From: an uncultured Candidatus Rokubacteria bacterium
GTDB lineage: Bacteria; Methylomirabilota; Methylomirabilia; Rokubacteriales; CSP1-6
Reading direction: 5' to 3'
DNA: 45,642 nucleotides
NCBI GenBank assembly: GCA_963762145.1
Contig: CAVXJS010000002.1
Coordinates: 1 to 45,642, forward strand
Within the stretch, counting starts at the first letter, position 1. Each line of letters begins with the position of its first letter. The notes below the pieces were generated by a model. That model saw only the letters and a list, made by a program, of their open reading frames with translations. It searched no databases and was not told the origin of the DNA. The translations under genes and the position numbers were made by a program. This document shows, in pieces, positions 1,420-40,214 of the stretch.

Positions 1420-1421
1420 GG

Positions 1422-4464: not shown

Positions 4465-4469
4465 GGCTC

Positions 4470-25497: not shown

Positions 25498-26868
25498 CTA
25501 CCGTCCCCTGGCGAAGAGGACGACCTGGATCGTGTTCAGCACGATCAGCAGATCGAGGAAGAGCGAAAGGTTCTTGATGTAGTAGAGGTCGTACTGGAGC
25601 TTCTCGACGGCGTCTTCGACCGAAGAGCCGTATTCGTACTTCACCTGAGCCCAGCCCGTGATGCCCGGCTTCACCGCGAGGCGCTCCATGTAGTACGGGA
25701 TCTGTTTCTGGAGCTCCGCCACGAATTCCGGACGCTCCGGACGCGGGCCGATGAAGCTCATGTGCCCCACGAGCACGTTGAACAGCTGGGGCAGCTCATC
25801 GAGCCTCGTGCGACGGAGGAAGCTCCCGACCCGGGTGATACGACTGTCACGCTGAACCGCCCACACCGGTCCGGTGTCCTTTTCCGCGTCCTGCCGCATC
25901 GAGCGGAACTTGTTGAGAATGAAGACGCAGCCATTCTGGCCGAGTCGAGGCTGTCGGTAGAAGATCGGGCCCGGCGACTCGAGCCTGACCGCGATTGCGG
26001 CCAGAACCATCAAGGGCAGGGAGAGGACGAGTCCGACCAGGGCGGCCGTGATATCGAACAGCCGCTTGATGATCTCGGTGCGGGGGGTCTTGACGAAGCC
26101 GTCGGAGAAGATGAGCCAGCTGGGCCGGACCGCGGCCACCAAGATCTTGCCGGTGGCCTTCTCGTAGAAGGTGGGCCAATCCTCGACCCGGATGCCGCGC
26201 AGACGGCACTCGAGCAGCGTCTGGGTGGGAAAGTTCCCTCGGCGGTCGACCTGGGCGACCACCACGATATCCGGCCGTGTCTCCTCCACCAGCGAATCGA
26301 GATCCTGGATCTTCCCGAGAAGCAGATGTCCGCTCGGTACCATGTCGGCAGCGTCGGGCGCGTCGTCGAGGAAGCCGATGATGCGAAAGGGCCGCGCGCT
26401 GGTGGGTTCCAGGTCTCCGATCAGCCGGCCCACATGGCCCGTCCCGAGAACGAGGACGCCCACGGTCATCTGCTGGCGCGACCAGGCTCCGAGGAGGCTG
26501 GCCCGCCAGGCCAGGAGCCCGGGTGTGGTGACGAGAAAGATCCCGAGGAACGCGTAGCGCCCGATCTTGAGTACGGGGACCGCGAACCCGGTCGCCGCGA
26601 GTATGAGGGCCGCGATGCCCTGGCAAACGAGGAGCCGAGCCACCAGATCCCTGCTCCCCAGAACCTGACGCGGCTGGTAGAGGTCACCCAGGTAGAGCAC
26701 AAAGGTGATCGCGATACCGACCTCGAGGAAGCGCGCCGTGAATGGACCATACCCGGCCCAGGGAGCAGAGAGCTCGGCGAGGTAGAACGCTCCGAAGACG
26801 ACGGCGAGGTCCCCGAGGAAGAGAACGCACGCCAGTCCTGATATGTAGTGTCGGAAGATTCGAAACAT
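25498..26868 (-). CDS. Priming undecaprenyl-phosphate sugar phosphotransferase (TIGR03013-like; WcaJ/WbaP family)
   Basis: MFRIFRHY start; N-terminal TMs; KRLFD, SPGPIFYRQ, KFRSM, DSRITRVG, RLDELPQL, GPRPERP, KPGITGWAQV, DLYY. The track start at 26895 lies inside the sigma54 promoter. Confidence 0.94.
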   Translation of the reverse strand: MFRIFRHYISGLACVLFLGDLAVVFGAFYLAELSAPWAGYGPFTARFLEVGIAITFVLYLGDLYQPRQVLGSRDLVARLLVCQGIAALILAATGFAVPVLKIGRYAFLGIFLVTTPGLLAWRASLLGAWSRQQMTVGVLVLGTGHVGRLIGDLEPTSARPFRIIGFLDDAPDAADMVPSGHLLLGKIQDLDSLVEETRPDIVVVAQVDRRGNFPTQTLLECRLRGIRVEDWPTFYEKATGKILVAAVRPSWLIFSDGFVKTPRTEIIKRLFDITAALVGLVLSLPLMVLAAIAVRLESPGPIFYRQPRLGQNGCVFILNKFRSMRQDAEKDTGPVWAVQRDSRITRVGSFLRRTRLDELPQLFNVLVGHMSFIGPRPERPEFVAELQKQIPYYMERLAVKPGITGWAQVKYEYGSSVEDAVEKLQYDLYYIKNLSLFLDLLIVLNTIQVVLFARGR

Positions 26869-26890
26869 GTCTGGTTCCGACCACACTAGG

Positions 26891-26906
26891 AGCAAGCGCA
26901 GTGCCA
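26891..26906 (-). promoter_or_regulatory. Sigma54 -24/-12 promoter P2 of the main EPS operon
   Basis: Minus strand TGGCACTGCGCTTGCT matches TGGCAC-N5-TTGCW, 22 nt upstream of the ATG at 26868. Confidence 0.9.
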
Positions 26907-26929
26907 GCTGTGGCGCGAGCGAGACACGC

Positions 26930-26942
26930 CAAGTATTCGATT
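26930..26942 (-). promoter_or_regulatory. Putative IHF site upstream of P2
   Basis: Minus strand AATCGAATACTTG, one mismatch to WATCAANNNNTTR, 23 nt from the -24 element (same spacing as at P3). Confidence 0.6.
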
Positions 26943-26985
26943 CAATGTGCTTTATGTCATACGCTTACCAAGTACTCGTGTTCTT

Positions 26986-27023
26986 TGATTGGGCAAACAT
27001 GTTCCGTCTTCTCGGATTTCTGC
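26986..27023 (-). promoter_or_regulatory. Putative enhancer (UAS) shared with P3
   Basis: GCAGAAATCCGAGAAGACGGAACATGTTTGCCCAATCA; 24/38 ungapped identity with 40010-40047; 79 nt from the -24 element. Confidence 0.65.
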
Positions 27024-27153
27024 GTGGCCGGGTGAGTCTGACTCCGCGATCTGGATAATTCTTATTTGAAACGAGGGTTTACAACGATATTTCTGGACGC
27101 AACCTTTGCGCGGGTTTCTTCGATCTTCCGGATGTTTCAGCCGGGGAGTGCGT

Positions 27154-27189
27154 GGCGAGAAGCGACTAGGTGACGAGAAACGGCTAGAA
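27154..27189 (+). repeat. Imperfect 18-bp tandem direct repeat
   Basis: GGCGAGAAGCGACTAGGT / GACGAGAAACGGCTAGAA (13/18 identical), straddling the beta-barrel stop codon. Confidence 0.5.
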
Positions 27190-28860
27190 GGTAGCGAAGA
27201 AGTTCAACGAGACGCGATTCTCCGCGTAATTGCCAGTACTATCCTGAGTGTCGAAAGCGCTGCGACCCATCTGCTGAATGAAGTCGTACCGGAGACTGGC
27301 GGTCAGCCAGCGAAGCGCCTGCCAGTTCACCGCGGCCCCATAGGTGAGGTACTTCTGGGTGCCGCTGCCCTCGACATTGCCGGTACCGGTGGGCTGGTTC
27401 TCGGTGTACGACACATTCAGGTTCGCATTGATGAAGGGGGTGAGCTGGTACAGGAAACTCCCGAAGAAGCTCCGAGTCTGTACGGTACCGAAGTTCTCAC
27501 CCGTCTGGGCAGTCTGCCGGAAGTCCTGGAAGACCCCGACCGAGATCGCGGCGCGCGTGAAGCGGTAGCTCACGGTGGCGTTCGCGGAAACCAGACCTTC
27601 GTTGTCTTGCTCGTCACTATTCAGAATGCTATAGCCAACAGCTGCCGAGAGCGATAGGCCGGTCGGCAGTCCATAGGCGCCGAAGACCGACGCATTCCAG
27701 ATCTTGGTATCTTCCTGAGTCTGGAACGAGTATGAGGTCGAAATCCCGCCGGTCGTGTACTGGCCGAACTGCCGGGAGGCGGAGCCGAAGAACGTATTGG
27801 TGGTCGAATCACCACCGATATCATTGTTGTTATTGTTGTTGCTGTCCGTGGTATCGACTCGCGAGAACTCGTATCCGGCGCGGATGAGATAGTCGGTAGC
27901 GACGCGGGTCGACGCGTTCAGTCCAAAGATATTCGTGATCGAGTCGTTCTGGCTACCCTGGTTCGTCTGATCCGACCCACCTTCTCGGTTGCCCTCGTTG
28001 AAGAAGAGCGTGTTGCGATAGTAGGCTTGGGTGGCGATCTGATCGAGCAACCAATCCACGGTCAGGGCGGCGCTGTTCGTGTTCGAAATCTGCCGGCCCT
28101 GCCTGAGTCCAGACCTGTCAAGGTTGCTGGCCGAATCGTTACGTACGAACACGTCGGTGAAGGTCACGGCAAGCCGCGGCGTGAGCGCGTACCGGATGGC
28201 CGCATTCACACTCGGAAAGACCTTCACCTCCGGTCCACTCTGGTCCACCGTATCGTGGACCAAATCCACCGTGGTCGAGAATGCCCCGAAGGTGCGTGCT
28301 CCGTTCAGAAAGAGCGAGAAGCCGGGCCCAAGGATCGAGCGGAAGTTGTCGCGAGAATGGCTCGAGGTCTGGAAGAAGTTGTCGGAGTATTCCCCCGCGA
28401 GGTGGAGCGTCGGATGGAACTCGAGGGTTGCTCCGCGAACGGTCGTGACGGTGGGCGCGAAAGCTCCCGGAACCGTCAATCCAGGGGCGCCCACGAAACC
28501 CGGTCCCCCCGGTAGCAGCGGGGAGGGAATGTTGGTCTGAGACGGGGCCGGGGGTGTCGGCGGCGTCCAGGGCGGCAGCGTTGTGCTCGGAGGCGCCGAC
28601 GGCGAGGTTGGCGTTCCGATCGGCGACTGCCCAGGGTACTGCTGAAGCAGCTGACCGGGCGTGATCGGCGGGCCGATTGGAGTTACCGGCGCGGGCGTCG
28701 TGGCCGGGGGTGTTTCCTGGGTCTGACCCTGGCTCGGCTGCTCACTGGGTCCGGGCGGGGTCGACGGGGTCTGCGCCCATCCTTGACCCGCGCCAAGGAA
28801 TCCCATCGAGAGAGCGAAGACGAGAGCAAAAATCGAGATCCGATGAGCCGCTTCGCTCAC
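27184..28860 (-). CDS. Outer-membrane beta-barrel associated with polysaccharide export, with N-terminal Pro/Thr/Ser-rich tract
   Basis: GTG at 28860 after GGAGG; signal peptide ending GWA-Q; about 100-aa P/T/S-rich region; YSDNFF; alternating aromatic beta-strands; C-terminal beta-signal VSLNFFATF. Confidence 0.85.
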   Translation of the reverse strand: MSEAAHRISIFALVFALSMGFLGAGQGWAQTPSTPPGPSEQPSQGQTQETPPATTPAPVTPIGPPITPGQLLQQYPGQSPIGTPTSPSAPPSTTLPPWTPPTPPAPSQTNIPSPLLPGGPGFVGAPGLTVPGAFAPTVTTVRGATLEFHPTLHLAGEYSDNFFQTSSHSRDNFRSILGPGFSLFLNGARTFGAFSTTVDLVHDTVDQSGPEVKVFPSVNAAIRYALTPRLAVTFTDVFVRNDSASNLDRSGLRQGRQISNTNSAALTVDWLLDQIATQAYYRNTLFFNEGNREGGSDQTNQGSQNDSITNIFGLNASTRVATDYLIRAGYEFSRVDTTDSNNNNNNDIGGDSTTNTFFGSASRQFGQYTTGGISTSYSFQTQEDTKIWNASVFGAYGLPTGLSLSAAVGYSILNSDEQDNEGLVSANATVSYRFTRAAISVGVFQDFRQTAQTGENFGTVQTRSFFGSFLYQLTPFINANLNVSYTENQPTGTGNVEGSGTQKYLTYGAAVNWQALRWLTASLRYDFIQQMGRSAFDTQDSTGNYAENRVSLNFFATF

Positions 28861-28879
28861 TTCACCCTCCACCCGCCCT

Positions 28880-29709
28880 CTAGAAGAGTCGTTGTGGGAC
28901 AAAGATGATGTCATTCGGTTGCAACCGGATATCAGGATTTTCGTCCGGCGACCGCATCATCTTATCAACATCCACCCGAATCCGTTCCTTCTTTTCTGAG
29001 TTCCCCCGGAGGACGTCCACTCGGCCGGCAGACGCCAGCGGCGTCAGACCGCCCACCTGGGTAAGGGCCTTCAAAATTGTCAGATCTCCCGTATATTTAA
29101 CGGCGCCGGGCTGCTTGACCTCCCCATTCACGTAGACCGCGTCCGCCAGTGGTACCACGACCGAATCTCCCGGCTCGAGCTTGGGATTCTGGCTCAAATC
29201 ACCCCGCTGGAGGAGGCGGTTGAAGTCAATCGGGATTCGCTTGTCGCCCCTCAGCACGAAGCCCTTCTCCGAGTCGGCGTTGGGAAGCACGCCTCCGATC
29301 ACCGAAATCGCCTGGAGCAGAGTCAGCTCGCGCGTGAGCTGCATGACGCCCGGCTTTCCGAAGCCTCCGACGAAGAAGACCGGGCGGCTGCGGATCTCTT
29401 TGATGATGACCGTGACGACGGCTCCCTTCACGGTCTTCTCGTAGACGCTCCGAGGTGGTCCTGCAGTTGTTGCACCGTCTTGCCTGCCACGCCGATTTCA
29501 CCGACCAGGGGCAGGGACGTACGCCCGTCCGGTCGAACGAAGACCATCTGATTCAGGTCCTTGTTCCCCCAGACCTGGATCTCCAGGATATCTTCAGGCC
29601 CGATGATGTAGTCCCGATCGGCCTGCTGAGGCGCGGGCACCTGTGCCTGCGCCACGAGCGGGATGAGCATCAAGGACACGGACAGTGCCAGCGAAGCGAG
29701 TGTTCTCAT
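28880..29709 (-). CDS. wza: OPX polysaccharide export protein (Poly_export + two SLBB domains); frameshift near 29448
   Basis: YIIGPEDILEIQVW, VRPDGRTSLPLVGEI (PES motif), two SLBB repeats (TLLQAISVIGG, TILKALTQVGG), LQPNDIIFVP. Signal peptide ends AQA with no lipobox Cys. Confidence 0.88.
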
Positions 29710-29714
29710 AGATG

Positions 29715-31097
29715 TCAGACTCCTAGAGAGTGTTGGCTCCCTGCTGCTTCATTGAACTGAGCCAAGGGGTCTGATCCACCCTGGCGGTATGCCTTGAGCT
29801 TGTATTGCAGGCAGCGAAGGCTGATTCCCAGTAGCCGCGCCGCCTGCGTACGATTGCCGCCCACCCCGTCGAGCGTCTGGAGGATGTACTGCTGCTCCAG
29901 GTCCCGTAGCGTCAGCCCCGCCGGCAGCCCCGGCTTGCCAGCCTCCGCTCCGCGCCGGCTACCCGAGTCCGACAAGGGCAGCACGTCGATGTCAATCGTA
30001 TCATGCTCATTTAATACCACCGCCTGCTCGATGCAGTTCTCGAGCTGCCGCACGTTGCCCGGCCACTCCGCCCCCAGCAGCAGCTCCGTCGCCCGCCCCG
30101 TCAGCCGCGGCACCCGCTTGTGATGCGCCGCCGCAAACTTCCGCAGAAAATGCTCCACCAGCAGCCCAATGTCCCCCCGCCGCGCCCGCAGCGGCGGCAC
30201 CTCGATCATCACCACCGCGATCCGGTAGTACAGATCCTCCCGAAACTGCCCCTCCCGCACCGCCTTCCGCAGATCCTTGTTCGACGCCGTGATCAGCCGG
30301 ATGTCCGTCCGCGTCGGCTTGCTCCCCCCTACCTTCACGAACTCCCGCGTCTGGATCACCCGCAACAGCTTCGCCTGCAACGGCATCGACAGCTCGCTGA
30401 TCTCGTCGATGAACAGCGTCCCCGTGTGCGCCAGCGCGAAGAACCCCGTCCGGTGCTCTACCGCCCCCGTGAAGCTCCCCCGCACGTGCCCGAACAGATG
30501 GCTCTCCATCAGCCCCTCCGGGATCGCCGTGCAGTCCAGCGTCACCAGCGGCCGGTCCGCCCGCGCGCTCTGCTCGTGGATCGCCCGGGCGATCAGCTCC
30601 TTGCCCGTCCCCGATTCCCCCGAGATGCACACGTTCGCATCCCCCACCGCCACCTTCTCGATCTTCGCCAGCACCTCCCCCAGCTGCGGCGACTGCCCGA
30701 TCAGCCCGTGGGCCGCCGCCAATCCTCCGGTCGCCGCACTCGGTCTCCCCAGCCGGCTCAGCACTCGGTCCAGCGCCGCAGTAAGCTCCGATTCTTCCAC
30801 CGGGCGATCGACCCACTGGACGCCTTGCAACGGCGGCGCCGTACTCGCGCTTCCCGGGGGGCCGAGCACAACAACAGGGCTCTCCAATCGCAGACCCCGA
30901 AGCCGCTGACTCAACTCCCAGGCCGTCAACGGAGCTTGGAGGTTCACCACGACGGCCGTGGGTCGCCCGCGCGACTGAACTGCCATTTCGAGCTCGTGCA
31001 AAGAGCCGATGAAATGTGGCTCCCAGCCTCGGACGGGAGCGCGGCGTCCAAGCAAGAGGGCCAGCTCGAGCGATTCGTCAAGCACTAGGAGATTCAA
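29715..31097 (-). CDS. Sigma54-dependent enhancer-binding protein (bEBP2) with degenerate N-terminal receiver-like domain
   Basis: TTG start after GGGAGG; GESGTGKE, LFGHVRGSFTGA, TLFIDEI, QAKLLRV, FREDLYYR, WPGNVRQL, Fis-type HTH GNRTQAARLLGIS. The expected phospho-Asp position reads VVVNL. Confidence 0.93.
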   Translation of the reverse strand: MNLLVLDESLELALLLGRRAPVRGWEPHFIGSLHELEMAVQSRGRPTAVVVNLQAPLTAWELSQRLRGLRLESPVVVLGPPGSASTAPPLQGVQWVDRPVEESELTAALDRVLSRLGRPSAATGGLAAAHGLIGQSPQLGEVLAKIEKVAVGDANVCISGESGTGKELIARAIHEQSARADRPLVTLDCTAIPEGLMESHLFGHVRGSFTGAVEHRTGFFALAHTGTLFIDEISELSMPLQAKLLRVIQTREFVKVGGSKPTRTDIRLITASNKDLRKAVREGQFREDLYYRIAVVMIEVPPLRARRGDIGLLVEHFLRKFAAAHHKRVPRLTGRATELLLGAEWPGNVRQLENCIEQAVVLNEHDTIDIDVLPLSDSGSRRGAEAGKPGLPAGLTLRDLEQQYILQTLDGVGGNRTQAARLLGISLRCLQYKLKAYRQGGSDPLAQFNEAAGSQHSLGV

Positions 31098-31118
31098 GTA
31101 CGGTTTCCTCCCAGGTCC

Positions 31119-31616
31119 CTAAACGGGGTCATCGCTGCCATGGGTGACCCGGTTGCCGCCGTGCTCGACGGCCTGGTCCAGATAGGCCATCGCCTGCGCA
31201 AGGAGAATGGCGTCCGTATGCCCATCCCGTGGGAAAGACACGTTTCCCACGCTGACCGTCAGCCGCTGTGGCCGTCCCTCTTGCCCCTCTCGAAAGGCCA
31301 CCTGCTCGATACCGGCGCGGATCCGCTCGGCCACACGGAGGGCATCCGAGCCCGCGGTGTGGAGAAGGATCACGGCGATTGCGGAAGAGATCTGTCCGAC
31401 GAAGTCGGTGGCGCGAACAAACTCGGGAATCTTCTCCGAGATCGCCCGCTCGATGTCCTCCCGCATTCCGTGCAGATCACGCTCGCCGTCCGGCCGGAGC
31501 ACACAGACTGAGAAGAAGTCCTGGTATCGTGTCGCGCGGCCGGCCTCCCGGATCAACAGGTGCCGGAACGCCTCCTCATGAAATACCCCTGTCCGGGCAT
31601 CCATGAACTCGTTCAC
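31119..31616 (-). CDS. Stand-alone degenerate GGDEF-domain protein retaining the RxxD I-site
   Basis: GTG after GGGAGG. DARTGVF, AERIR, LTVSVG, SFP and GGNRV match the GGDEF fold. RATD is present, but the GG(D/E)EF position reads QISSAI. Confidence 0.82.
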   Translation of the reverse strand: MNEFMDARTGVFHEEAFRHLLIREAGRATRYQDFFSVCVLRPDGERDLHGMREDIERAISEKIPEFVRATDFVGQISSAIAVILLHTAGSDALRVAERIRAGIEQVAFREGQEGRPQRLTVSVGNVSFPRDGHTDAILLAQAMAYLDQAVEHGGNRVTHGSDDPV

Positions 31617-31654
31617 GAATTCCTCCCTTCCTTAGGCAGAATGTCCACAGGGAG

Positions 31655-31670
31655 AGCAAGTCTTGCGCCA
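31655..31670 (-). promoter_or_regulatory. Sigma54 -24/-12 promoter P1 of the GGDEF-bEBP2-OPX-barrel unit
   Basis: Minus strand TGGCGCAAGACTTGCT (GG-N10-GC, TTGCT), 38 nt upstream of the GTG at 31616. Confidence 0.85.
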
Positions 31671-31741
31671 TGACCCTTTGGAGGCCGGCGGGAGTGATTG
31701 CGGCGATTTCGAGGACGCGAGATATTACAGGTGCTTATGAC

Positions 31742-31762
31742 CCGGACCCGTGGACGGTCCGG
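31742..31762. promoter_or_regulatory. Inverted repeat, candidate UAS for P1
   Basis: CCGGACC-N7-GGTCCGG, 71 nt upstream of the P1 -24 element; no U-tract. Confidence 0.35.
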
Positions 31763-31845
31763 CAAGTGCGGCGAGAAACGCTAACGGCTAGAGAGACAAG
31801 CGACGGTGAATAGACTTAGGTAGGTTTCGGGACAAACGCAGCAAA

Positions 31846-33291
31846 TCATTTCCTACCGCGCTCCGGGCGATCGTCCAGACCAACCTGCTTGATCTTGTAG
31901 AGCATCGCCTTGTAGCTGATCTTGAGGAGGCGCGCCGCTTCGGCGCGGTTCCAGCGCACCTTCTCGAGGACCTCCTTGATGACCGCCTTCTCCGCAGCCA
32001 TGGCGGCTCGACGCGCGATGTCCTTCAGGCCCATCTCCAGCTCCGCGACGGGTGCCGCCGCCGGCGCGGCATGAGATGCGGTCCCGGCCTCGGGTTTCGG
32101 GGCCCATGGCTTCTCGCTCCGGAGGGCGATCTCCTGCTGGACGAGGGCCTCGGTCTGGAGCACCACCGCCCGCTTGATCATGTTTTCCAGCTCCCGAACA
32201 TTGCCGGGCCACGAGTAGTCCTGGAGCAGCCGCATGGTGGCCGCGGAGATCTTGAGGGCATCGCGATTGTACTGGCGGCAAAATCGGATCATGAAGTAGT
32301 CCACCAGCATCGGGATCTCCTCGCGCCGTTCCCGCAGTGGCGGAATGGAGATGGCCACGACATTCAGCCGGTAGTAGAGATCCTCCCGGAACAGGCCGGT
32401 CCCCATGAGTGAGGCCAGGTTCCGGTTGGTTGCCGCGATGAGCCGGGCGTCAGACGTGATCACTTCGCTGCCGCCGACCCGGAAGAATTGGCCGTCCTGG
32501 AGAACATGGAGCAGCTTGGCCTGCAGCCCCAGCGGCATCTCACCAATTTCGTCGAGCAGGAACGTGCCGCGGTGGGCCAGCTCGAACTTCCCCGGCTTGC
32601 GCCGATGCGCTCCCGTGAACGAGCCCTTCTCATGGCCAAAGAGCTCGGACTCCAGCAGGTCACCCGGCAGGGAGGCACAGTTGACCTTCAAGAAGGGCTT
32701 CTCCCGGCGGTCGGAGATGTAGTGGATCGCCCGGGCCACCATCTCCTTGCCCGTCCCGCTCTCCCCCTGCAGCAGGATCGTGGCGTTCGTGTCGGCCGCC
32801 CGGCGGACAATGTCCTCGACCGCGCGCATCCGTTCGCTGTTCCGGAACAGCAAGTCCACGTCGACCGGCAACGGGCCGGTCAGCGAGACCCCGCCCGGCT
32901 GTGGCGCCATCGACGGCGGTCCATCCAGCTGGGCCAGGGCGCCCTTCATGATCTCTTTGAGGGCGGTCGCCGCGACCGGCTTGACCAGGAAGTCGTACGC
33001 TCCGGTGCGCATCCCTCGGACGACCAGGTCGGTATCCCCGCTTCCGGAAAGGATGATCAAGGGAACGTCCGCGTTTTCGAGCCTCATCTGGCGCGGCAGG
33101 TCGAGGGGTGGGCCGTCGAGCTGATCGATGTCGATGAGCACCAAAACGGGGTGCAGACTCGAGAGGAGTGCCAGTCCCTCGGCGGCGGTTCCCGCCTCGA
33201 GCACCCCATAACCGGCCTCCTTGATCGTACGGGTCAGGGCAACCCGGCGCTCCGGGCGGCCGTCGACGATCAGAACCGAGCCGGGGCTCAT
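31846..33291 (-). CDS. NtrC-family sigma54-dependent response regulator (bEBP1; REC-AAA+-HTH)
   Basis: ATG at 33291 (MSPGSVLIVDG); VLIDID, ILSG, FLVKP; GESGTGKE, ELFGHEKGSFTGA, LLDEIGEM, FREDLYYRLNV, WPGNVRELEN, WNRAEAARLLKIS. Confidence 0.95.
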   Translation of the reverse strand: MSPGSVLIVDGRPERRVALTRTIKEAGYGVLEAGTAAEGLALLSSLHPVLVLIDIDQLDGPPLDLPRQMRLENADVPLIILSGSGDTDLVVRGMRTGAYDFLVKPVAATALKEIMKGALAQLDGPPSMAPQPGGVSLTGPLPVDVDLLFRNSERMRAVEDIVRRAADTNATILLQGESGTGKEMVARAIHYISDRREKPFLKVNCASLPGDLLESELFGHEKGSFTGAHRRKPGKFELAHRGTFLLDEIGEMPLGLQAKLLHVLQDGQFFRVGGSEVITSDARLIAATNRNLASLMGTGLFREDLYYRLNVVAISIPPLRERREEIPMLVDYFMIRFCRQYNRDALKISAATMRLLQDYSWPGNVRELENMIKRAVVLQTEALVQQEIALRSEKPWAPKPEAGTASHAAPAAAPVAELEMGLKDIARRAAMAAEKAVIKEVLEKVRWNRAEAARLLKISYKAMLYKIKQVGLDDRPERGRK

Positions 33292-33325
33292 GAGAGCTGG
33301 AAGGCGGGACCGCCGAGGCCGGGGC

Positions 33326-33354
33326 TTGACGAAGCCCTTGAAGCTCCTGATACT
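33326..33354 (+). promoter_or_regulatory. Candidate sigma70-type promoter for the receiver gene
   Basis: TTGACG-N17-GATACT, ending 17 nt before the ATG at 33372. Confidence 0.4.
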
Positions 33355-33371
33355 GGCGTCCGGCGCAACCC

Positions 33372-33737
33372 ATGAGAATACTGGTGGTGGACGACGACCC
33401 GGCGGTGGCCGAGATGATTGCGGAGGCCGTCCGTAGTTTCGGCCACGAGGCCATGGTGGCACTCGACGGCATGGAGGGCTTGCACCTTCTCGAATCCACC
33501 GCCGTTCAAGGCGTGTTCCTCGACCTCGTGATGCCGGGGCAGGGCGGACTGGCAGTTCTCGCGCAAATCAGAAGTCGCTATCCCCACGTTCCCGTCGTAA
33601 TCCTCTCGGCTCATGCCGGTGACGAAGAAGGCCGCCAGGCGATCGCCCTCGGGGCGTCGGAAGTCCTCCTGAAGCCTGCTGGCCTCGCTCAGTTCACCGA
33701 AGTGTTGTCGCGGCTGACACGTATCCACGGATCGTGA
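33372..33737 (+). CDS. Single-domain response regulator (CheY-like receiver)
   Basis: MRILVVDDD, VFLDLVMP, ILSAH, LLKP: all canonical receiver residues, no output domain. Confidence 0.93.
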   Translation: MRILVVDDDPAVAEMIAEAVRSFGHEAMVALDGMEGLHLLESTAVQGVFLDLVMPGQGGLAVLAQIRSRYPHVPVVILSAHAGDEEGRQAIALGASEVLLKPAGLAQFTEVLSRLTRIHGS

Positions 33738-33965
33738 GATCTAGCTAACCTCGGATGCCTCTCGCTTCCATATTTTCCACTGTTGCCCAACTCTATATGA
33801 AAGGCAATACTCAAATACGGTAGCGCAGTTGATGAGTTCCTCCCTTCGCCGATCCGAAGTAGCCCGGTTCATCCGGGTCACCTCTGCAATAAGTGCAGGC
33901 ATCGAAGCGCCCTTCGCTTTGCCCATTTAGAATCGGCGATGGAAAAGGTATCTTAGGTTTCACCG

Positions 33966-35835
33966 ATGACTTCGGAACCCACCCTCGTCCAGAAGGCGCT
34001 CGCGGGGAAAACTCGCGGCGATATCCTGGCCGCGTTCGGCCCCAATCGGCCGGCGCTCTCTATGTCGGACGTCCAGCGCTTCACGCAACATCTGGAGACG
34101 CTCGGGGAGTCTACCGCTCCGCTCCGGATCGGTATCCTGCACACCTACACGAGTGATCTGCTGGACCCGTACCTCCGCTTCGAGGCGTTGCTGCAGGGCT
34201 TCGCGGTAGCCACCTACCACGGCCCGTACGGGGCGATCGTACAGGAGTCGCAGCCCGCTTCGGGTTTGGTCGCGCACAAGCCCCATCTCACGGTGATGCT
34301 GCTGCGCTGGGAAGATCTCGACCCCGAACTGGGCGGCGCGTTCACTGCACCATCAGCGGACCACCTGGCCAACCTGGCCGAGCGGGCGAGGGCTCGCCTG
34401 ATGCAGCTCGTCGGGGCGGTGCGCGGGGCCATCGACGGGCACATCCTGATCACCCTTCTGCCGCGGGATCGCGGGCCGGGTCTGGGCGATTACGACACGA
34501 TGTCTCCCGTGTCCGAGCACGCCTGGCGCGAAGAGATCAAGGCCTCGATCGCATCGGATCTGATGGGCGCCTATCCGTCGACCACGCTGCTCGACCTCGA
34601 CCACGGGCTCACGACACTGGGGCGTGACCGTTTCTTCGATCGACGCTGGTGGTATACCTCCCGCTTCCCCTTCTCACCCGCCGCGGCCCAGGATCTCGCC
34701 CGACGTGTCGTGGCGGTCGGGGCGGTACTGAAGCGGCCGCGCGCGAAAGTCATCGCCCTCGACGCGGACAATACGCTCTGGGGTGGGGTCATCGGAGAAG
34801 ACGGTCTGGAAGGTATCGCCCTGGGACCGGACTATCCCGGCAACTGCTACGTGGACTTCCAGCGGCGCCTGCTCGAATACCAGCAGCGCGGCTTCATCCT
34901 TGCCCTGTGCAGCAAGAACAATCAAGCGGACGTTTTGGAAGTGCTGCGACGCCACCCGCACCAGGTGCTCCGGGAGGAGCACTTCGCCGCGCTCCGCATC
35001 AACTGGCAGCCGAAGCCGGACAACCTGCGCAGTCTCGCCGAGGAATTGAATCTCGGCCTCGACTCCATCGTCTTCGTGGACGACAGCGCGCACGAGTGCG
35101 CCATCGTTCGACAGACCCTCCCGATGGTGGACGTCGTGCAGACCCCGGCGCGCGCGATCGACATTCCCGTCTGCCTCGATCGCGTGTCGCGGCTGGAAGT
35201 CGTCGCGCTCACCGAGGAGGACCGGCGGAAGACCGAGATGTACGTTCAGGATCGCAAGCGGCGCGACCTGGCTGCTTCCGGCATCGACCTGCCTGGCTTA
35301 TCTCCGCTCGCTGCAGATGGAGATCTCGGTGGGCCTCGACGATCGGCGGGCAGATAGCCCGCATCGCCCAGCTCACTCAGAAGACCAACCAGTTCACCCT
35401 CACCACGCGCCGGTACACCGAGGATGAGATCTCCCGGCGGATCCAGGCGGCCGACTGGGTGGTGGCCCACTTCTCTCTTCGGACGATATCTTCGGCGACA
35501 GTGGAATCGTCGGGGTCGCGCTCGTCCACCAGACCGCGCCCGAACTCGCGGAGCTGGACACGTTCCTGATGTCTTGCCGGGTCATCGGACGCATGGCCGA
35601 GACGGCGTTCCTCGAGACCATTCTCGAGGCCCTTCGGCGCCGGGGCATCACCACGCTCCTGGCCGACTACCTCCCGACGCCGAAGAACGGACTGGTGGCC
35701 GGCTTTCTTCCCGAGCATCGGTTCGACCTGCGGTCGGATGGTCGGTACGTACGCGCGCTCGACAGCGCCGGCCACGGGCGGGACATCCCGATCATGGTCC
35801 GTCTGACCGACGAGACACCGGCCCTGAGCGCATGA
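33966..35835 (+). CDS. fkbH: FkbH-like HAD-IIIC glyceryl-ACP-loading enzyme with N-terminal extension; frameshifts near 35295 and 35480
   Basis: KVIALDADNTLWGGVIGEDG, LCSKNN, INWQPK, LGLDSIVFVDD, TEEDRRK, RIAQLTQKTNQF, FGDSGIVG, MSCRV (acyl-carrying Cys), PTPKN. Confidence 0.9.
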
Positions 35836-35869
35836 GCCGGCCGTTCCCGATCGCCCCCCGGCGGCCCAC

Positions 35870-36106
35870 GTGAGCGTCTTCGAGCAGCTTCGCGGTACCC
35901 TCGCCGCGTCCCTGGGCGTGACGCCCGACACGATCAGCTCGACGACGCGCCAAGCCGATCTCTCCAAGTGGGATTCACTGGCTCATATCAACCTGATGGT
36001 GGCCCTGGAGAGCACCTTCGACATCACGCTCGAGGTCGAGGACTTCGCGAGCCTGACGTCGGTCCCCGCGATCCTCGCCTACCTGCAGAACCATGGGATC
36101 GAGTGA
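35870..36106 (+). CDS. Acyl carrier protein
   Basis: 78 aa, acidic; WDSLAH phosphopantetheine Ser motif; LESTFDI. Confidence 0.92.
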   Translation: MSVFEQLRGTLAASLGVTPDTISSTTRQADLSKWDSLAHINLMVALESTFDITLEVEDFASLTSVPAILAYLQNHGIE

Positions 36107-36115
36107 GCAGGGGCG

Positions 36116-37015
36116 GTGAGTCTCATCGAGAGACTGTCCGGTCTGGCCGTCGGTCATCTGAGCTCGGACCGAGTCGCAACCCTTCGCGACCATTATCACG
36201 CGCTACGCACGCGGCTCCATCCGATCATCCGGGCGGTCAACGGGACGTTTGACGCGGCCCAGCTCCGGGCGGAGCTGGAGGTCCGCCTGCCCAGAGCGTT
36301 CGAGATCCTCATGGTCCACAGCTCGCTCAACCACATGTTGCCGATGTACGTCGGAAGTCCCCTCGAGCTCCTGCATGAGCTGATGAAGTTCTGCGGACCG
36401 GATCGGACCCTCGCGATGCCCGCCTTCTATTTCGGAGAGGCGGGGGGGGACGTGGTGGCAAGCTACCGCGAACGGCCGCTGTTCGACGTCCGTCGCACCC
36501 CTTCCCAGATGGGGATCCTGACCGAGCTCTTTCGCCGCGGAAAAGGTGTCCGGCAGAGCCTTCATCCCACGCACCGGATCGCCGCGCTGGGGCCCCTCGC
36601 GACCGAGCTCACCTCGGGGCACGACACGGCGGGGAGCACCTTCGGATCGGGCACGCCCTTCGACTTGATGGCGACGCACGATACGGTGGTCCTCGGTCTC
36701 GGCAAGCCCTTCGAGGTCCTGACCCAGGTCCATCACGCCGAAGCGCTCCTGGGCCATCGGTTCCCGGTGCCGAGCGAGGAGATCGCGGTGCCGGTCACGA
36801 TCCGTGACGAGAAGGGGATCGAGCGACCCTTCACCTTGCAGGTACGCCGGTTCGAGTCCGCGAGAGACATGTGGCGGCTTCCCCAGCTGATGGGCCCGGG
36901 CCGCCTGAGGAGCTGGACATTTCACCGAGTCCCGATGTTCTCGGTCAAGGCGGGAGAGGTCACCGCCGATCTCATCGCGGCGGCCGGTCGGGGCCGGACC
37001 CTCTACACGGGCTAG
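36116..37015 (+). CDS. AAC(3)/YokD-family N-acyltransferase
   Basis: LMVHSSL, TLAMPAF, TPSQMGILTELFR, SLHPTH, FGSGTPF, VHHAE. Confidence 0.88.
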   Translation: MSLIERLSGLAVGHLSSDRVATLRDHYHALRTRLHPIIRAVNGTFDAAQLRAELEVRLPRAFEILMVHSSLNHMLPMYVGSPLELLHELMKFCGPDRTLAMPAFYFGEAGGDVVASYRERPLFDVRRTPSQMGILTELFRRGKGVRQSLHPTHRIAALGPLATELTSGHDTAGSTFGSGTPFDLMATHDTVVLGLGKPFEVLTQVHHAEALLGHRFPVPSEEIAVPVTIRDEKGIERPFTLQVRRFESARDMWRLPQLMGPGRLRSWTFHRVPMFSVKAGEVTADLIAAAGRGRTLYTG

Positions 37016-37052
37016 ACAGCCCGAACCACGCGAACCTGCGGAGAAGACGGAG

Positions 37053-38237
37053 TTGCGGGGACGGATCGCCGATCTGAGCCGGAAGGCAGGAGCCGCGTGG
37101 GCGATGGTACGCCTCGACGCGGCGGCTCGCCGGGAGCACCTGAATCGGGAAGAGTCCATGCACGGGACGCTCCGATGGCTCGCGCGGGCCCAGGACGCTA
37201 CCCCGGACGATGGGGTCTCCTACGGATATGGTTTGTCCGACGGCTGGACGACCTCCTATCCCGAGACGACCGGCTACATCCTCCAGACCTTTGTCGCCTA
37301 CCACGATCTGTTCGGCTCCGATGACGTCTGGAGTCGGGCGCGGAGAATGGCCCGGTGGGAGGCGGACGTTCAGATGCCGAGCGGAGCGACGCCCGGCCGG
37401 TATGGCACCAAGCGCCCCGTTCCGGTGGCATTCAACACCGGGCAGGTGCTTCTGGGATGGGCCGAATACCTGCGCCGGGAAAATGACGCGCGCGTCCGCG
37501 ACGCGGCGGCGCGGGCGGGGCGCTGGCTCGTCGCCTGCATGAAAGACAGCGCCTACTTCGCCGACGGCGTATCGGCGGAGGCCGAGCACGGCGATCTCTC
37601 CTACAATGCGATGGTGTCCTGGGGTCTGGCCGAGCTGGGGGTCGTCCTTGAAGATGCCGCGATGGTGTCGGCCGCGCAGCGCTCGGCCAGACACTACGCC
37701 GGACTCGTCGACGATCGGCAGTGGCCCTACCGGGCCGGATTCTCGAACGCGGACTCCGCCTATCCGCTCACTCACAACCTCGGCTATACGATCCAGGGCC
37801 TGGTCGAGACCGGCCGGGTGGTCGATGATGCGAGCCTCGGGGACGTGGCGAAGAGCATGCTCGACGCGGCTCGACCTCTGATCGACCCGCGGACGGGGTT
37901 CCTGCCCGGACGCATCCGTCCCGGATGGCAGACCGGCGCCTCCTGGGCCTGCCTGACCGGATCGGCGCAATTCGCGTGCTCGTATCTCCGGCTGGTGGCA
38001 ATGAAACGCAGTGAGCCTGACTACCCGGCGCTGGCCGGCCGGCTGGTCGACTATGTCGTGGGCACCCAGCTCAGCGAGCGCCATGGAAGCCCGGACATTG
38101 CCTTCGGCGTGCGGGGGTCGCACCCGTTCCGCTTCGGAGCGTACCAGCCCGCCACCTATCTCAACTGGGCCGCAAAGTTCCTGCTCGACGCGCTCCTGAT
38201 GCTGCACCGGCAAGATCGTCCGGTCGCGACCACGTGA
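37053..38237 (+). CDS. (alpha/alpha)6-barrel / prenyltransferase-squalene oxidase repeat-like protein of unknown function
   Basis: WLARAQD, DDGVS, SYPETTGY, QMPSGA, FNTGQVLLG, THNLGY, CLTGSAQ, YLNWAAKF. The start position (TTG) is uncertain. Confidence 0.7.
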   Translation: MRGRIADLSRKAGAAWAMVRLDAAARREHLNREESMHGTLRWLARAQDATPDDGVSYGYGLSDGWTTSYPETTGYILQTFVAYHDLFGSDDVWSRARRMARWEADVQMPSGATPGRYGTKRPVPVAFNTGQVLLGWAEYLRRENDARVRDAAARAGRWLVACMKDSAYFADGVSAEAEHGDLSYNAMVSWGLAELGVVLEDAAMVSAAQRSARHYAGLVDDRQWPYRAGFSNADSAYPLTHNLGYTIQGLVETGRVVDDASLGDVAKSMLDAARPLIDPRTGFLPGRIRPGWQTGASWACLTGSAQFACSYLRLVAMKRSEPDYPALAGRLVDYVVGTQLSERHGSPDIAFGVRGSHPFRFGAYQPATYLNWAAKFLLDALLMLHRQDRPVATT

Positions 38238-38650
38238 GGTTTCATCATGTCGGGTACGCGGTCGAGGCGATCGAGCCCTATCTGAAGGAGTTCTTCGAAC
38301 CCCTGTTCGGCCCATGCCCGGTGAGCCCGGTCTATGAGGACCCGATCCAGCGCGTCCGGGTGGTCTTCGTCGAGGTTCCACCCGGAACGAGGATCGAGCT
38401 GGTGCAACCCCTCGACGAGAATAGCCCCGTGAGACGTTTCATCGGCGACCAGCGGGGTGGCCTCTACCATCTCTGCTTCGAGGTCGACGACCTGGACGCG
38501 GAGATTGCGCGCTTCCGCCGCCGCCGCTGCCTTCCGCTGACGCCTCCCGCGCCCGCGGTCGCCTTCGGGGGGCGACGGATCGTCTTCCTGATGACGCCCC
38601 AGCGCGATCTGATCGAGCTGCTCGAATCGGGTGTCCCCCGGTCGACTTGA
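38234..38650 (+). CDS. VOC-family protein, methylmalonyl-CoA epimerase-like
   Basis: GTGA overlap; FHHVGYAV, Q.VRVVF, IELVQP...SPV, GGLYHLCFEVDDL, LIELLE. Confidence 0.88.
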   Translation: MRFHHVGYAVEAIEPYLKEFFEPLFGPCPVSPVYEDPIQRVRVVFVEVPPGTRIELVQPLDENSPVRRFIGDQRGGLYHLCFEVDDLDAEIARFRRRRCLPLTPPAPAVAFGGRRIVFLMTPQRDLIELLESGVPRST

Positions 38651-39882
38651 GCCACGGGCTGCTCGACTCCGCGTGGCGCCGGGAGTACCCGGTCATGGTC
38701 CCCGAGGCTCACGCGGTGGGCTCGGTCGGAGTGATCCGCTCACTCGGCCGCGCCGGATATCCGGTCCATGCGGTGGCGACGTCAGACGATGCGCTAGGCC
38801 TCCGGTCCCGTCTGGCCGCCCAGGCCGTGGTGGCCCCACGCTATGACGATCCGGGCTTCCTGCCGTGGCTTGGTCGTTACGTTCGCGACAACAGTATCCG
38901 GGCGATCGTTCCGTCGGAGGGCTTCCTCTTCGCCATCCGGCCGGTCTTCGCCAACTTCGCCCATCTCCTACCGTTGCCGGGCGATGAGCAGGTAGTCTAC
39001 CGGGCGCTCAGCAAGTACGAGTTCTTCTGGCGGCTGGCCCGCGACGCTTCACTCTGGAAAAACGTCCCGCCGACGCTGTTCGTCGACGGTGACCCGCCGC
39101 CTGAGTCGGACTACGCGGCGCTTCCGTACCCGGTCTTCCTGAAGGCAGACCGCATCCACGCGCGCACCGCCGGCGACGGCGGGGTGTTCCCGGTCAGCTC
39201 CGCGGCGGCGGCGCGGCGGCGGAGCATCGAGCTTCTCCGCGACTACGATCGCATTCTCGTGCAGGGATTCGTGCCGGGCACGAAACCGGGGGAGTACCTG
39301 CTCCTGTGGGACGGTGGGGTGCGCGCGCATTTCGCCAATCTGATGAACCACCAGGCCCCCCATCGTGGAGGCTTCGGCTCACTCAGGACGAGCTGGCACC
39401 ATCGCGAGCTGGCGCTCGACGCCGAGGAGAAGCTCCGGGCGATGGACTGGCAGGGCGCGGCGATGGTCGAGTATCGCTGGGACCCGAAGACCGACCGGTT
39501 CTGGTGCATCGAGCTCAACGCCCGGTTCTGGGGGTCGCTGCATCATGCGCTGTACGCCGGGGTGGACTTCCCGAGACTCCTCCTCGACGGATTCCTGGGG
39601 CGACCCGCAGAGCCCATCCCGATCTACTCGGACGGGCTCCGCTGCCGCCTGATGGTGCCGGCGGAGGTCGGCTACCTGCTTTCCCGATTGCGCGATCCCG
39701 ACGTTGCGCTGCCGGCTCGCGTCTGGACCGCCATCGAGTTCCTTCTCCTGTCCTTCGACCCCCGGATTCGGTCGGATCTCCTGTGGCCAGGCGATCGAGG
39801 CCTGTACTGGAGGGCGGCGGCCGAGTTTGTCCGCGGGGCGCTGTTCGGAAAGAAGAGTGCCGGCCAAGCGGACCCCCGCTAG
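38647..39882 (+). CDS. ATP-grasp carboxylate-amine ligase-like protein
   Basis: IRSLGRAG, SKYEF, PPT, YPVFLK, LVQGFVPG, AMVEYR, IELNARFWGS, GVDFP. Confidence 0.85.
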   Translation: MSHGLLDSAWRREYPVMVPEAHAVGSVGVIRSLGRAGYPVHAVATSDDALGLRSRLAAQAVVAPRYDDPGFLPWLGRYVRDNSIRAIVPSEGFLFAIRPVFANFAHLLPLPGDEQVVYRALSKYEFFWRLARDASLWKNVPPTLFVDGDPPPESDYAALPYPVFLKADRIHARTAGDGGVFPVSSAAAARRRSIELLRDYDRILVQGFVPGTKPGEYLLLWDGGVRAHFANLMNHQAPHRGGFGSLRTSWHHRELALDAEEKLRAMDWQGAAMVEYRWDPKTDRFWCIELNARFWGSLHHALYAGVDFPRLLLDGFLGRPAEPIPIYSDGLRCRLMVPAEVGYLLSRLRDPDVALPARVWTAIEFLLLSFDPRIRSDLLWPGDRGLYWRAAAEFVRGALFGKKSAGQADPR

Positions 39883-40009
39883 GGTCGCGGCCGTGTGCAA
39901 AGGTTGCAGGAGAGCAGGCCTCACGCGCAGGCTGGCTTCCACGCCTGATTCGACGCGGCTTTCCTCCCGGGCCAGCCGGGGCAGCCGCACCCCTTCGTAG
40001 GTCGGCAAT

Positions 40010-40047
40010 GCAGATTTCCTAGCAAGGGGTAGGAACTTACCCAATCA
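40010..40047 (+). promoter_or_regulatory. Putative enhancer (UAS) shared with P2
   Basis: GCAGATTTCCTAGCAAGGGGTAGGAACTTACCCAATCA; contains the palindrome GGGTA-N6-TACCC; 78 nt from the -24 element. Confidence 0.65.
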
Positions 40048-40089
40048 GGGGAAGCAGTTTCCGTAGCGTCGATAGATTTAGCTCTGCAA

Positions 40090-40102
40090 AATCAAGAGCT
40101 TA
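40090..40102 (+). promoter_or_regulatory. IHF binding site upstream of P3
   Basis: AATCAAGAGCTTA, an exact match to WATCAANNNNTTR, 23 nt from the -24 element. Confidence 0.75.
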
Positions 40103-40125
40103 TTTGATTCCCGCCGCCTTCGCCG

Positions 40126-40141
40126 TGGCACTCGTATTGCT
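40126..40141 (+). promoter_or_regulatory. Sigma54 -24/-12 promoter P3 of the rfbF operon
   Basis: TGGCACTCGTATTGCT matches TGGCAC-N5-TTGCW, 73 nt upstream of the rfbF ATG. Confidence 0.9.
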
Positions 40142-40214
40142 TGACTCCCTTCCTCGGCAACACAAGCGTCTTGATGCGTGCGGCTCACTTGATCTGACAG
40201 AGGGCTCATCGACG

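Follow-up and report, generated by a model that had tools for sequence, protein, structure and literature searches.

A shared tripartite element upstream of sigma-54 promoters in an exosortase-type exopolysaccharide locus of an uncultured Candidatus Rokubacteria bacterium

Introduction

Promoters of the NtrC/NifA type, such as glnAp2 and nifH, share a familiar organization in which activator sites lie about 80-150 bp upstream, an IHF-type site stands between them and the promoter, the promoter itself carries GG at -24 and GC at -12, and the activator is an AAA+ protein with a Fis-type helix-turn-helix (HTH). The stretch of DNA considered here, which we call the window, comprises 45,642 nucleotides from an uncultured Candidatus Rokubacteria bacterium and forms the initial 45.6 kb of contig C2 in a genome assembly of 6.26 Mb, 25 contigs and 70% G+C. 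It contains two sigma-54 promoters, P2 and P3, that resemble the classical ones in having a candidate upstream activating sequence, an IHF-type site, a -24/-12 promoter and genes for AAA+/Fis-type HTH activators nearby. They differ from the classical promoters in their new binding motif, a 56-bp composite of three unlike dyad-like blocks, in its unusually rigid register (115-119 nt in 80 copies) and in the uncultured lineage that hosts them. This 56-bp element, and the operons that it precedes, are the subject of this report.

Activator cascades that depend on RpoN and act on exopolysaccharide clusters are a general theme. In the BerB/BerA control of the Bep polysaccharide in Burkholderia cenocepacia, and in FleQ control of pel and psl, RpoN and an enhancer-binding protein reportedly act on the polysaccharide genes in a cascade, with an activator that has a non-phosphorylatable N-terminal domain and a link to c-di-GMP-type proteins. 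The Rokubacteria locus would resemble both in placing a pseudo-receiver activator candidate (bacterial enhancer-binding protein A, bEBP-A) beside a GGDEF-type protein, together with RpoN and an exopolysaccharide cluster. It differs from them in that the GGDEF partner lacks the GG(D/E)EF motif, and the likeness of the sequences is only that generic to the NtrC family.

Scans with NCBIfam and Pfam models identify the window as an XrtA/PEP-CTERM exopolysaccharide locus. As in its closest specific precedent, the PrsK/PrsR/PrsT system with its PEP-CTERM box (PMC1569441), an exosortase A system is here combined with a sigma-54 promoter, an upstream motif and an activator gene near exopolysaccharide genes. 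The present locus differs in having no PrsR ortholog over the cut-off, no TTTACA in its upstream motif, biosynthesis operons as targets, and a non-proteobacterial host.

Results

Two sigma-54 promoters with a common upstream element

P2 (TGGCAC-TGCGC-TTGCT, 26906..26891, minus strand) lies before the gene for a priming glycosyltransferase and further polymer genes, with a transcription start expected near 26880, and P3 (TGGCAC-TCGTA-TTGCT, 40126..40141, plus strand, start expected near 40152) lies before the rfbF operon. The sequences, positions and strands assigned to the two promoters in a first-pass annotation of the window were all reproduced. Both are exact matches to TGGCAC-N5-TTGCT, both are intergenic (within the gaps 26869-27183 and 39883-40214), and both point toward genes. 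An rpoN gene is present (450 bits; cut-off 277). Across both strands the genome contains 26 matches to TGGCAC-N5-TTGCT (31 if TTGCW is allowed), an approximately 15-fold enrichment over the ~1.7 sites predicted from base composition, so that most such sites should be real promoters.

Upstream of each promoter lies a related sequence of about 56 bp. At P2 it spans 26971..27026 on the minus strand, with the G of a conserved GCAGA at 27023, 117 nt before TGGCAC; at P3 it spans 40007..40062 on the plus strand, with GCAGA starting at 40010, 116 nt before TGGCAC. The 38-mers in which the likeness had been recognized (27023..26986, minus; 40010..40047, plus) do agree without gaps at 24 of 38 positions, and they end 79 and 78 nt before TGGCAC. 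The shared sequence therefore stands as described, but the length of 38 bp does not, since conservation at positions left free by our search patterns extends the element to about 56 bp, from about -3 to +53 in its own numbering.

The other sigma-54 promoters of the genome provide a natural control for this similarity. When the upstream 250 nt of the 31 promoters were compared in ungapped 38-nt windows (465 pairs), the modal score was 18/38, and only five pairs exceeded the 24/38 of P2 and P3, with one more equal to it. Of these, the equal-scoring pair and four of the higher-scoring ones belong to a promoter family on contig C21 that is unrelated to P2 and P3; the remaining one matches P2 with a third promoter of the same genome, C19:405402, at 28/38 and in the same position. 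At this promoter, on another contig, the element lies at C19:405285 and GCAGA again precedes TGGCAC by 117 nt. The genes that follow encode an FkbH-N protein, an MBOAT O-acyltransferase, an unassigned open reading frame (ORF) and a DUF218 protein, in what looks from its gene content like a polysaccharide acylation operon.

The C21 family (G000:C21:1132524-1182119) has a different upstream element at about -90, with up to 28/38 identities between members. Its promoters precede ORFs that we judged by eye to be universal-stress-like and small heat-shock-like, and a bEBP gene lies at C21:1182221-1183600.

A position weight matrix (PWM) of 46 nt, built from ten sites, was then scanned over the genome. 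Among 12.5 million positions only the P2, P3 and C19 sites scored above 10 bits, with full scores of 59-64 and leave-one-out scores of 47-54. The genome-wide search proposed in the first-pass annotation consequently returns three sites, each with a sigma-54 promoter 116-117 nt downstream. In the window, PWMs for the individual blocks of the element found no further significant copies. One fragment, TTTGCCCATTTAGA at 33908-33931, corresponds to a variant right half of the second block, as found in some relatives, and lies 40 nt before the FkbH start at 33966; without GGAA, and without room for a sigma-54 promoter, it is possibly a remnant or a chance match.

Distribution of the element among relatives and metagenomes

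Orthologs of the priming glycosyltransferase with 80-85% identity are present in four of the 20 other genomes of the genus (G001, G002, G005 and G018), and in all four the orthologous P2 promoter and its element stand at the equivalent place. A P3-type promoter with the element also precedes the rfbF orthologs of G002 and G005, and a C19-type promoter precedes the FkbH ortholog of G002. At all ten promoters from these five genus genomes GCAGA lies 116-118 nt before TGGCAC. In a MAFFT alignment of the ten there are only three conserved islands, namely the element, AAtCAnnnnnTTr and TGGCAc-N5-cTTGCT, and the flanks and spacers are unalignable.

The strict pattern GCAGA-N13-GGWA-N5-TT-N-CCCA has ten matches in 41 related genomes, all at these known promoters, against none for the reversed pattern. 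A looser right-hand pattern coupled to the promoter added one variant site, before an epimerase gene in G020. In the order-level relative G028, whose glycosyltransferase is 56% identical, only block 1 (GCAGAATCTGC, 114 nt before TGGTCC-N5-TTGCT) and a block-3-like GGAA-N4-TTTTC are recognizable at P2.

A wider search, for the composite of element and TGGCA in one genome from each of 185,579 species, gave 34 matches. Six of these have a full promoter, and the remaining 28 look like chance, being close to the expected number. The six comprise four known orthologous P2 and P3 sequences, one further glycosyltransferase ortholog (L089) and one locus of another kind, L097. The loci with orthologous promoters (L075, L084, L098 and L104) carry the labels Candidatus Rokuibacteriota, Candidatus Methylomirabilia and Candidatus Deferrimicrobiaceae.

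In L097, from a metagenome-assembled genome labelled Deltaproteobacteria, positions 2001-2138 contain GCAGA..GGAA-N6-TTTCCCA followed by further TTTCC words, 122 nt before TGGCAT-N5-TTGCG, and the downstream gene ends in a PEP-CTERM tail. We considered this locus as a bridge to the PrsR box and rejected it: the site is the only one in that genome, which is likewise without PrsR over the cut-off.

Metagenomes yielded 83 stretches that match the composite with a full promoter, of which 80 were analyzed. Within an allowed gap of 76-90 nt, a range of 15 nt, the observed gaps are confined to 81-85 nt, and the distance from GCAGA to TGGCAC is 115 nt in one copy, 116 in 19, 117 in 42, 118 in 17 and 119 in one. 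Conservation in relatives, which had been named beforehand as the test that could refute the motif, is thus seen at ten promoters of five genomes and on 80 metagenome contigs. Two copies with less than 20 nt of upstream flank were dropped; among the other 78, 54 precede the priming glycosyltransferase gene, ten rfbF, seven an epimerase gene, four FkbH and three an unknown gene. The epimerase gene is orthologous (77%) to the one in second place in the P3 operon, and this class therefore corresponds to P3 without rfbF.

Anatomy and spacing of the element

Internal structure was followed in 49 non-redundant copies, which differ from one another by more than 10% over the first 100 nt. The element consists of three blocks, CCryGCAGAwTTCmG, GGAA-N4-tTTkCCCAAyCAG and GGA-N6-TTCT, and each is an imperfect dyad with a GA...TC core; the dyad centers are ~19 and ~21 bp apart. 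Variants of the blocks occur (CCCAATCAG versus CCCATTTAG, and GGAA versus GGTA). In block 1 the pairs 2/11, 4/9 and 5/8 are complementary in 38, 43 and 47 of the 49 copies. In block 2 the pairs 19/32, 20/31 and 22/29 are fixed by the search pattern, and 21/30 is complementary in 21/49; in block 3, pair 41/52 is complementary in 43/49 and pair 43/50 in 48/49. The GGwA-N6-TnCC dyad that the first-pass annotation saw at the core of the element is therefore present, and at P3 block 2 is indeed the perfect GGGTA-N6-TACCC, but only 21 of the 49 copies have a perfect dyad. The recurring half-site words at P3 (TTCC, TACC and TTCC at 40016, 40038 and 40059) were confirmed, and TTC at element positions 7, 28/29 and 50 recurs every 21-22 bp.

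Where the search pattern left the base free, conservation is 75-100% overall. At the left edge C is kept at -3 and -2, a purine at -1 and a pyrimidine at 0. Block 1 retains T7 (48/49), T8 (47/49), C9 (43/49) and G11 (38/49), block 2 retains A35 (39/49), T36 (47/49), C37 (38/49), A38 (49/49) and G39 (36/49), and block 3 retains G41 (43/49), A43 (48/49), T50 (49/49), T51 (40/49), C52 (49/49) and T53 (40/49).

An IHF-like site lies between element and promoter, ending 23 nt before TGGCAC at both P2 and P3, just as first noted. At P2 it is AATCGAATACTTG (26942..26930, minus), with one mismatch to WATCAANNNNTTR, and at P3 it is AATCAAGAGCTTA (40090..40102, plus), a perfect match. The best WATCAANNNNTTR match falls at -36/-37 in 45 of the 49 copies, and a match with at most one mismatch is found in 34, compared with two of 49 for the reversed control. 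Between block 3 and TGGCAC lie 63-65 nt, and between the CCCA of block 2 and TGGCAC 82-84 nt. The fixed layout accordingly comprises the element at about -146 to -91 from the expected start, the bend site at about -62 to -50, the -24/-12 boxes and a short leader.

The start codon of the priming glycosyltransferase lies 16-27 nt, mostly 23-24 nt, past the TTGC of the -12 box (26868 and 26891 in the window, and 54 metagenome copies). A start codon so near the -12 box implies a leader of ~10-15 nt, and no clear Shine-Dalgarno sequence is present.

Enhancer-binding proteins encoded at the locus

Two bEBP genes lie on the minus strand upstream of P2. bEBP-A (29715..31097) has a pseudo-receiver, an AAA+ sigma-54 domain with GSFTGA and a Fis-type HTH, and bEBP-B (31846..33291) has a receiver, an AAA+ sigma-54 domain and a Fis-type HTH. 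The two proteins share the sigma-54 AAA+ domain, the lid domain, an HTH_8 (Fis-type) domain and the GSFTGA loop, and their closest solved relatives, ZraR, NtrC1, LuxO and NifA, indicate no more than a generic NtrC-family likeness. At what we take from the receiver consensus to be the acceptor position, bEBP-B keeps Asp, and bEBP-A and its G028 ortholog have Asn. A small GGDEF-domain protein without the GG(D/E)EF motif is encoded between them (31119..31616, minus), and a stand-alone receiver-domain protein (33372..33737, plus) is divergent from bEBP-B. G028 keeps the order of the cassette, from bEBP-B through a sigma-54 promoter, a small ORF, bEBP-A, the exporter, the outer-membrane protein and a second sigma-54 promoter to the glycosyltransferase.

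A further sigma-54 promoter, P1 (TGGCGC-AAGAC-TTGCT, 31670..31655, minus), occupies the gap that separates bEBP-B from the degenerate-GGDEF gene. The GTG of the latter is 39 nt downstream, transcription is expected to start at about 31643, and the gene is predicted to be co-transcribed with bEBP-A from P1. The P1 16-mer is unique in the genome, and there is no 56-bp element at P1. After bEBP-B the 16-mer is identical in seven of the eight genus genomes examined, with one substitution in G005, and its surroundings have diverged; in G028 an equivalent sigma-54 promoter occupies the same cassette position.

Upstream of P1 a conserved block of ~45 nt (31810..31853, minus) starts in the last codons of bEBP-B and contains one GGAA-N4-TTTGC unit like that of block 2. 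It is kept in all eight genus genomes, 171-194 nt from P1, and is partly coding; it is possibly an activator site for P1. The block-wise PWMs missed this unit because it is without CCCA. The genome holds 13 instances of GGAA-N4-TTT[GT]C, three of which, at P2, C19 and P1, fall no more than 300 nt upstream of a sigma-54 promoter; the reversed pattern is just as frequent (13), with no instance in such a position. The comparison was made post hoc, and we take it as a hint that the unit may link P1 to the DNA-binding specificity of P2 and C19.

bEBP-A has a paralog, A' (G000:C9:619859-621187), that is 83% identical overall, with one residue different in the HTH. A tract of ~660 nt (gene nt 420-1080) is 99-100% identical at the DNA level, and the N-terminal domain only ~60-70%; the tract reflects either gene conversion or assembly collapse. 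Contigs of the relatives, like many from metagenomes, stop within bEBP-A at ~3 kb upstream of P2, which is what a repeat would produce. The start of A' is preceded at 44 nt by a sigma-54-like promoter of its own, TGGCAC-N5-TTGCG (G000:C9 ~621250; L073 17248, minus), which follows an ORF with a PEP-CTERM-type tail; an MFS transporter and cytochromes c are encoded downstream. A search for an activator site common to P1 and the A' promoter gave a best ungapped match of 15/25, which is at chance level, and the idea was dropped.

Organization of the locus

The first gene downstream of P2 encodes the TIGR03013 priming glycosyltransferase (25498-26868, minus; 489 bits against a cut-off of 393). Past it on the minus strand are genes for a chain-length/tyrosine-kinase protein, nucleotide-sugar enzymes, the XrtA deacetylase, a FemAB-like protein, two stp1 glycosyltransferases, amidotransferases, glmS and an ABC exporter. 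Upstream of P2, also on the minus strand, genes for an outer-membrane protein and a polysaccharide exporter accompany bEBP-A, the GGDEF-domain protein and bEBP-B. The plus strand carries an FkbH/acyl carrier protein (ACP)/acyltransferase group and then P3, whose operon consists of rfbF (glucose-1-phosphate cytidylyltransferase, 368 bits; 40215-41012), an epimerase gene (41048-42095, frameshifted), and genes for a C-methyltransferase, an aminotransferase, a 2-oxoglutarate (2OG) oxygenase and a GT2 protein.

Frame changes interrupt a number of genes, each of which is read in two frames. They comprise amidotransferase and O-antigen-ligase pieces, wecB, and the genes for the exporter, the epimerase (where the frame shifts near 41200) and the C-methyltransferase, at 642-5789, 18931-20488, 28880-29748, 41048-42095 and 41695-43327. 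These splits are likely to be assembly indel errors or pseudogenes. From 4 kb on, the G+C content of the locus is 60-69% and that of third codon positions (GC3) ~0.8, below the 70% and 0.9-0.96 (contig C9) of the genome; lower G+C is common for polysaccharide loci and may reflect horizontal origin. In G005 (C25) the bEBP-B start is ~1 kb from the P3 element, and in the window (33966-39882) and in G002 ~6-7 kb of extra genes intervene, encoding FkbH, ACP, an AAC(3)-like acetyltransferase, an ATP-grasp-like protein and unknowns.

Discussion

The recurrence of one control module (element, bend site and promoter) upstream of several polymer operons means that these operons are probably switched on together by one activator. 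We consider it likely, on the strength of the sequence comparisons presented here, that the 56-bp element is the activator site of a sigma-54 exopolysaccharide regulon. The proposal of the first-pass annotation, that the polymer operon and the CDP-sugar operon form one regulon with the layout of upstream activating sequence, IHF site and promoter, fits all of the computed sequence evidence and is supported. The regulon is also wider than was first proposed, with a third operon (FkbH/MBOAT) in this genome and four classes of downstream gene overall.

We considered whether the element might instead be a diverged PEP-CTERM box (motif 1 of Haft et al., 2006), bound by a PrsR-type regulator, in which case the operons would belong to the known PrsK/PrsR regulon. 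The biological system is certainly the same, an XrtA/PEP-CTERM locus with a TIGR03013 glycosyltransferase, and in Aquincola this glycosyltransferase gene adjoins prsK-prsR (PMC9850573). Motif 1 may repeat, and it lies a mean of 62.8 nt (range 32-92) before the sigma-54 motif (PMC1569441), a spacer compatible with the distances measured here for block 3 (63-65 nt from its end) and for the CCCA of block 2 (82-84 nt); the L097 site, moreover, precedes a sigma-54 promoter and a PEP-CTERM-tailed gene. Against this, no protein of the genome matches TIGR02915 (PrsR) over its cut-off, the best reaching 440.5 bits against 502.6, and the two bEBPs of the locus score 335 (338 in the locus scan) and 298 bits, ranking 15th and 19th among the genome's paralogs. 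Motif 1 is described as 17 nt long and ending in TTTACA (PMC1569441), a word found in none of the copies seen (ten genome sites and 80 from metagenomes), although the comparison is with a text description of motif 1 and a weaker likeness is possible. The PEP-CTERM box is also reported only from Proteobacteria and before genes for PEP-CTERM proteins (PMC1569441), whereas the present element stands before biosynthetic operons in a non-proteobacterial lineage, and none of the eight PEP-CTERM matches in the genome has the element by PWM. We therefore regard a diverged PrsR box as unlikely. The statement that the binding site was not a recognized one accordingly holds insofar as the element is not the published PrsR box, there being neither PrsR nor TTTACA, but the biological system is one already described.

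Slightly less probable still is that the element is the target of a protein outside the enhancer-binding class, for instance a repressor, a nucleoid protein or some second regulator, and that the true activator acts elsewhere or from solution. The unlike half-site spacings of the three blocks would be compatible with such a protein, as would the rearrangement of the middle block in G028 while both HTHs are kept, and a weak sigma-70-like match (9/12) lies between the element and P2, at 26960..26932. However, an upstream activating sequence would require just such a position, length and rigid phasing to the promoter, with an IHF-like site in between, and the MAFFT alignment contains no other conserved island upstream of these promoters where an activator might bind. 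Mere common descent of recently duplicated promoter cassettes, with no present function, would explain why the three genome copies share element, bend site and promoter in one fixed arrangement, but it is very improbable, since paralogous promoters, four gene classes and 49 non-redundant metagenome copies all retain the blocks, whereas their spacers and flanks bear no relation to one another, which implies selection on the blocks and their spacing.

Several observations nevertheless weigh against an activator site of a single regulon, or limit what can be drawn from its conservation. The searches fixed 14-23 bases, so conservation at those bases is circular and only the unfixed positions count. 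The relatives' sites are also not independent, the first ten being five P2, three P3 and two C19 orthologs. The genome has six genes of the HU/IHF family, and none reaches the himA cut-off (best 94 bits against 120). A contig from a soil metatranscriptome (X3, record 17) spans 26707-26958, reaching 78 nt upstream of the expected P2 start; it crosses that start, and it may represent read-through from the upstream operon, or else library DNA or a relative. The metatranscriptomes were used as assembled contigs only, which have low depth and cover small shares of the stretch; they reveal no start site and no expression level, and the uncovered parts are uninformative. A terminator scan of the coding strand gave no candidate site separating the upstream genes from the element at either promoter, and a sigma-70 scan yielded no useful site beyond the weak match mentioned above. 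Some genus genomes that yielded no match to the motif do have bEBP-A-like and bEBP-B orthologs (80-91% identity), but their assemblies are interrupted within bEBP-A (in G020 ~1 kb after bEBP-B), and the phylogenetic profile accordingly says little and assigns no activator. In G028 both HTH recognition helices are nearly unchanged, so that comparing HTHs separates neither candidate, and the middle block is unrecognizable, which ties it to neither HTH. Finally, half-site spacings that differ among the three blocks are unusual for the repeats of one dimer, and two proteins may share the element.

Starting from the observed anatomy of the element, its conservation, its specificity within the genome and the presence of rpoN and two activator genes, we infer binding, bending, start sites and the order of a cascade along the following lines. 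An NtrC-family enhancer-binding protein would oligomerize on the three blocks, which follow one another on the same side of the DNA at intervals of about two turns. A bend in the DNA would bring this activator to the closed sigma-54 holoenzyme, and ATP hydrolysis would open the promoter. The operons for the priming glycosyltransferase and polymer, for the CDP-sugar and for acylation would consequently fire together.

The activator is most likely encoded between P2 and P3. bEBP-A is our tentative first choice, short of an even chance, and bEBP-B is a possible but weaker candidate. We would give a smaller chance to another protein altogether, and action of bEBP-A and bEBP-B together at the element seems unlikely. 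The presence of two activators and two promoter classes suggests one activator for each, and a cascade is suggested by P1, a conserved sigma-54 promoter lying between the two activator genes; in the simplest wiring phosphorylated bEBP-B would act at P1, and bEBP-A made from P1 would act at P2, P3 and the C19 promoter. A link of bEBP-A to c-di-GMP would rest on the circumstantial pairing of its pseudo-receiver with the adjacent degenerate GGDEF protein. More speculatively, and we think this doubtful, the locus might be a non-proteobacterial exosortase polysaccharide system in which a two-tier sigma-54 cascade replaces PrsK/PrsR: the receiver-type bEBP-B would act at P1, which would yield bEBP-A and its degenerate GGDEF partner, and bEBP-A on the tripartite enhancer would then turn on all operons of the polymer pathway. 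In such a cascade bEBP-A may form mixed rings with A', given the near-identical 660-nt AAA+ tract and the nearly identical HTH.

The architecture of these promoters is textbook; the regulon motif itself is previously undescribed. A literature search on Rokubacteria with sigma-54 found no paper, and among the matches listed for exosortase, enhancer-binding protein, exopolysaccharide and RpoN none describes such a regulon. What emerges is a small, clean regulon, with three promoters in the genome and four gene classes across metagenomes, whose motif is usable for annotating polymer-pathway genes in metagenomes and for pairing an orphan enhancer-binding protein with its site. More broadly, the locus indicates that an exosortase system can be under sigma-54 control without PrsR, and it provides a testable cis-regulatory code (element, bend site, promoter and fixed spacing) for exopolysaccharide production in an uncultured, abundant soil lineage.

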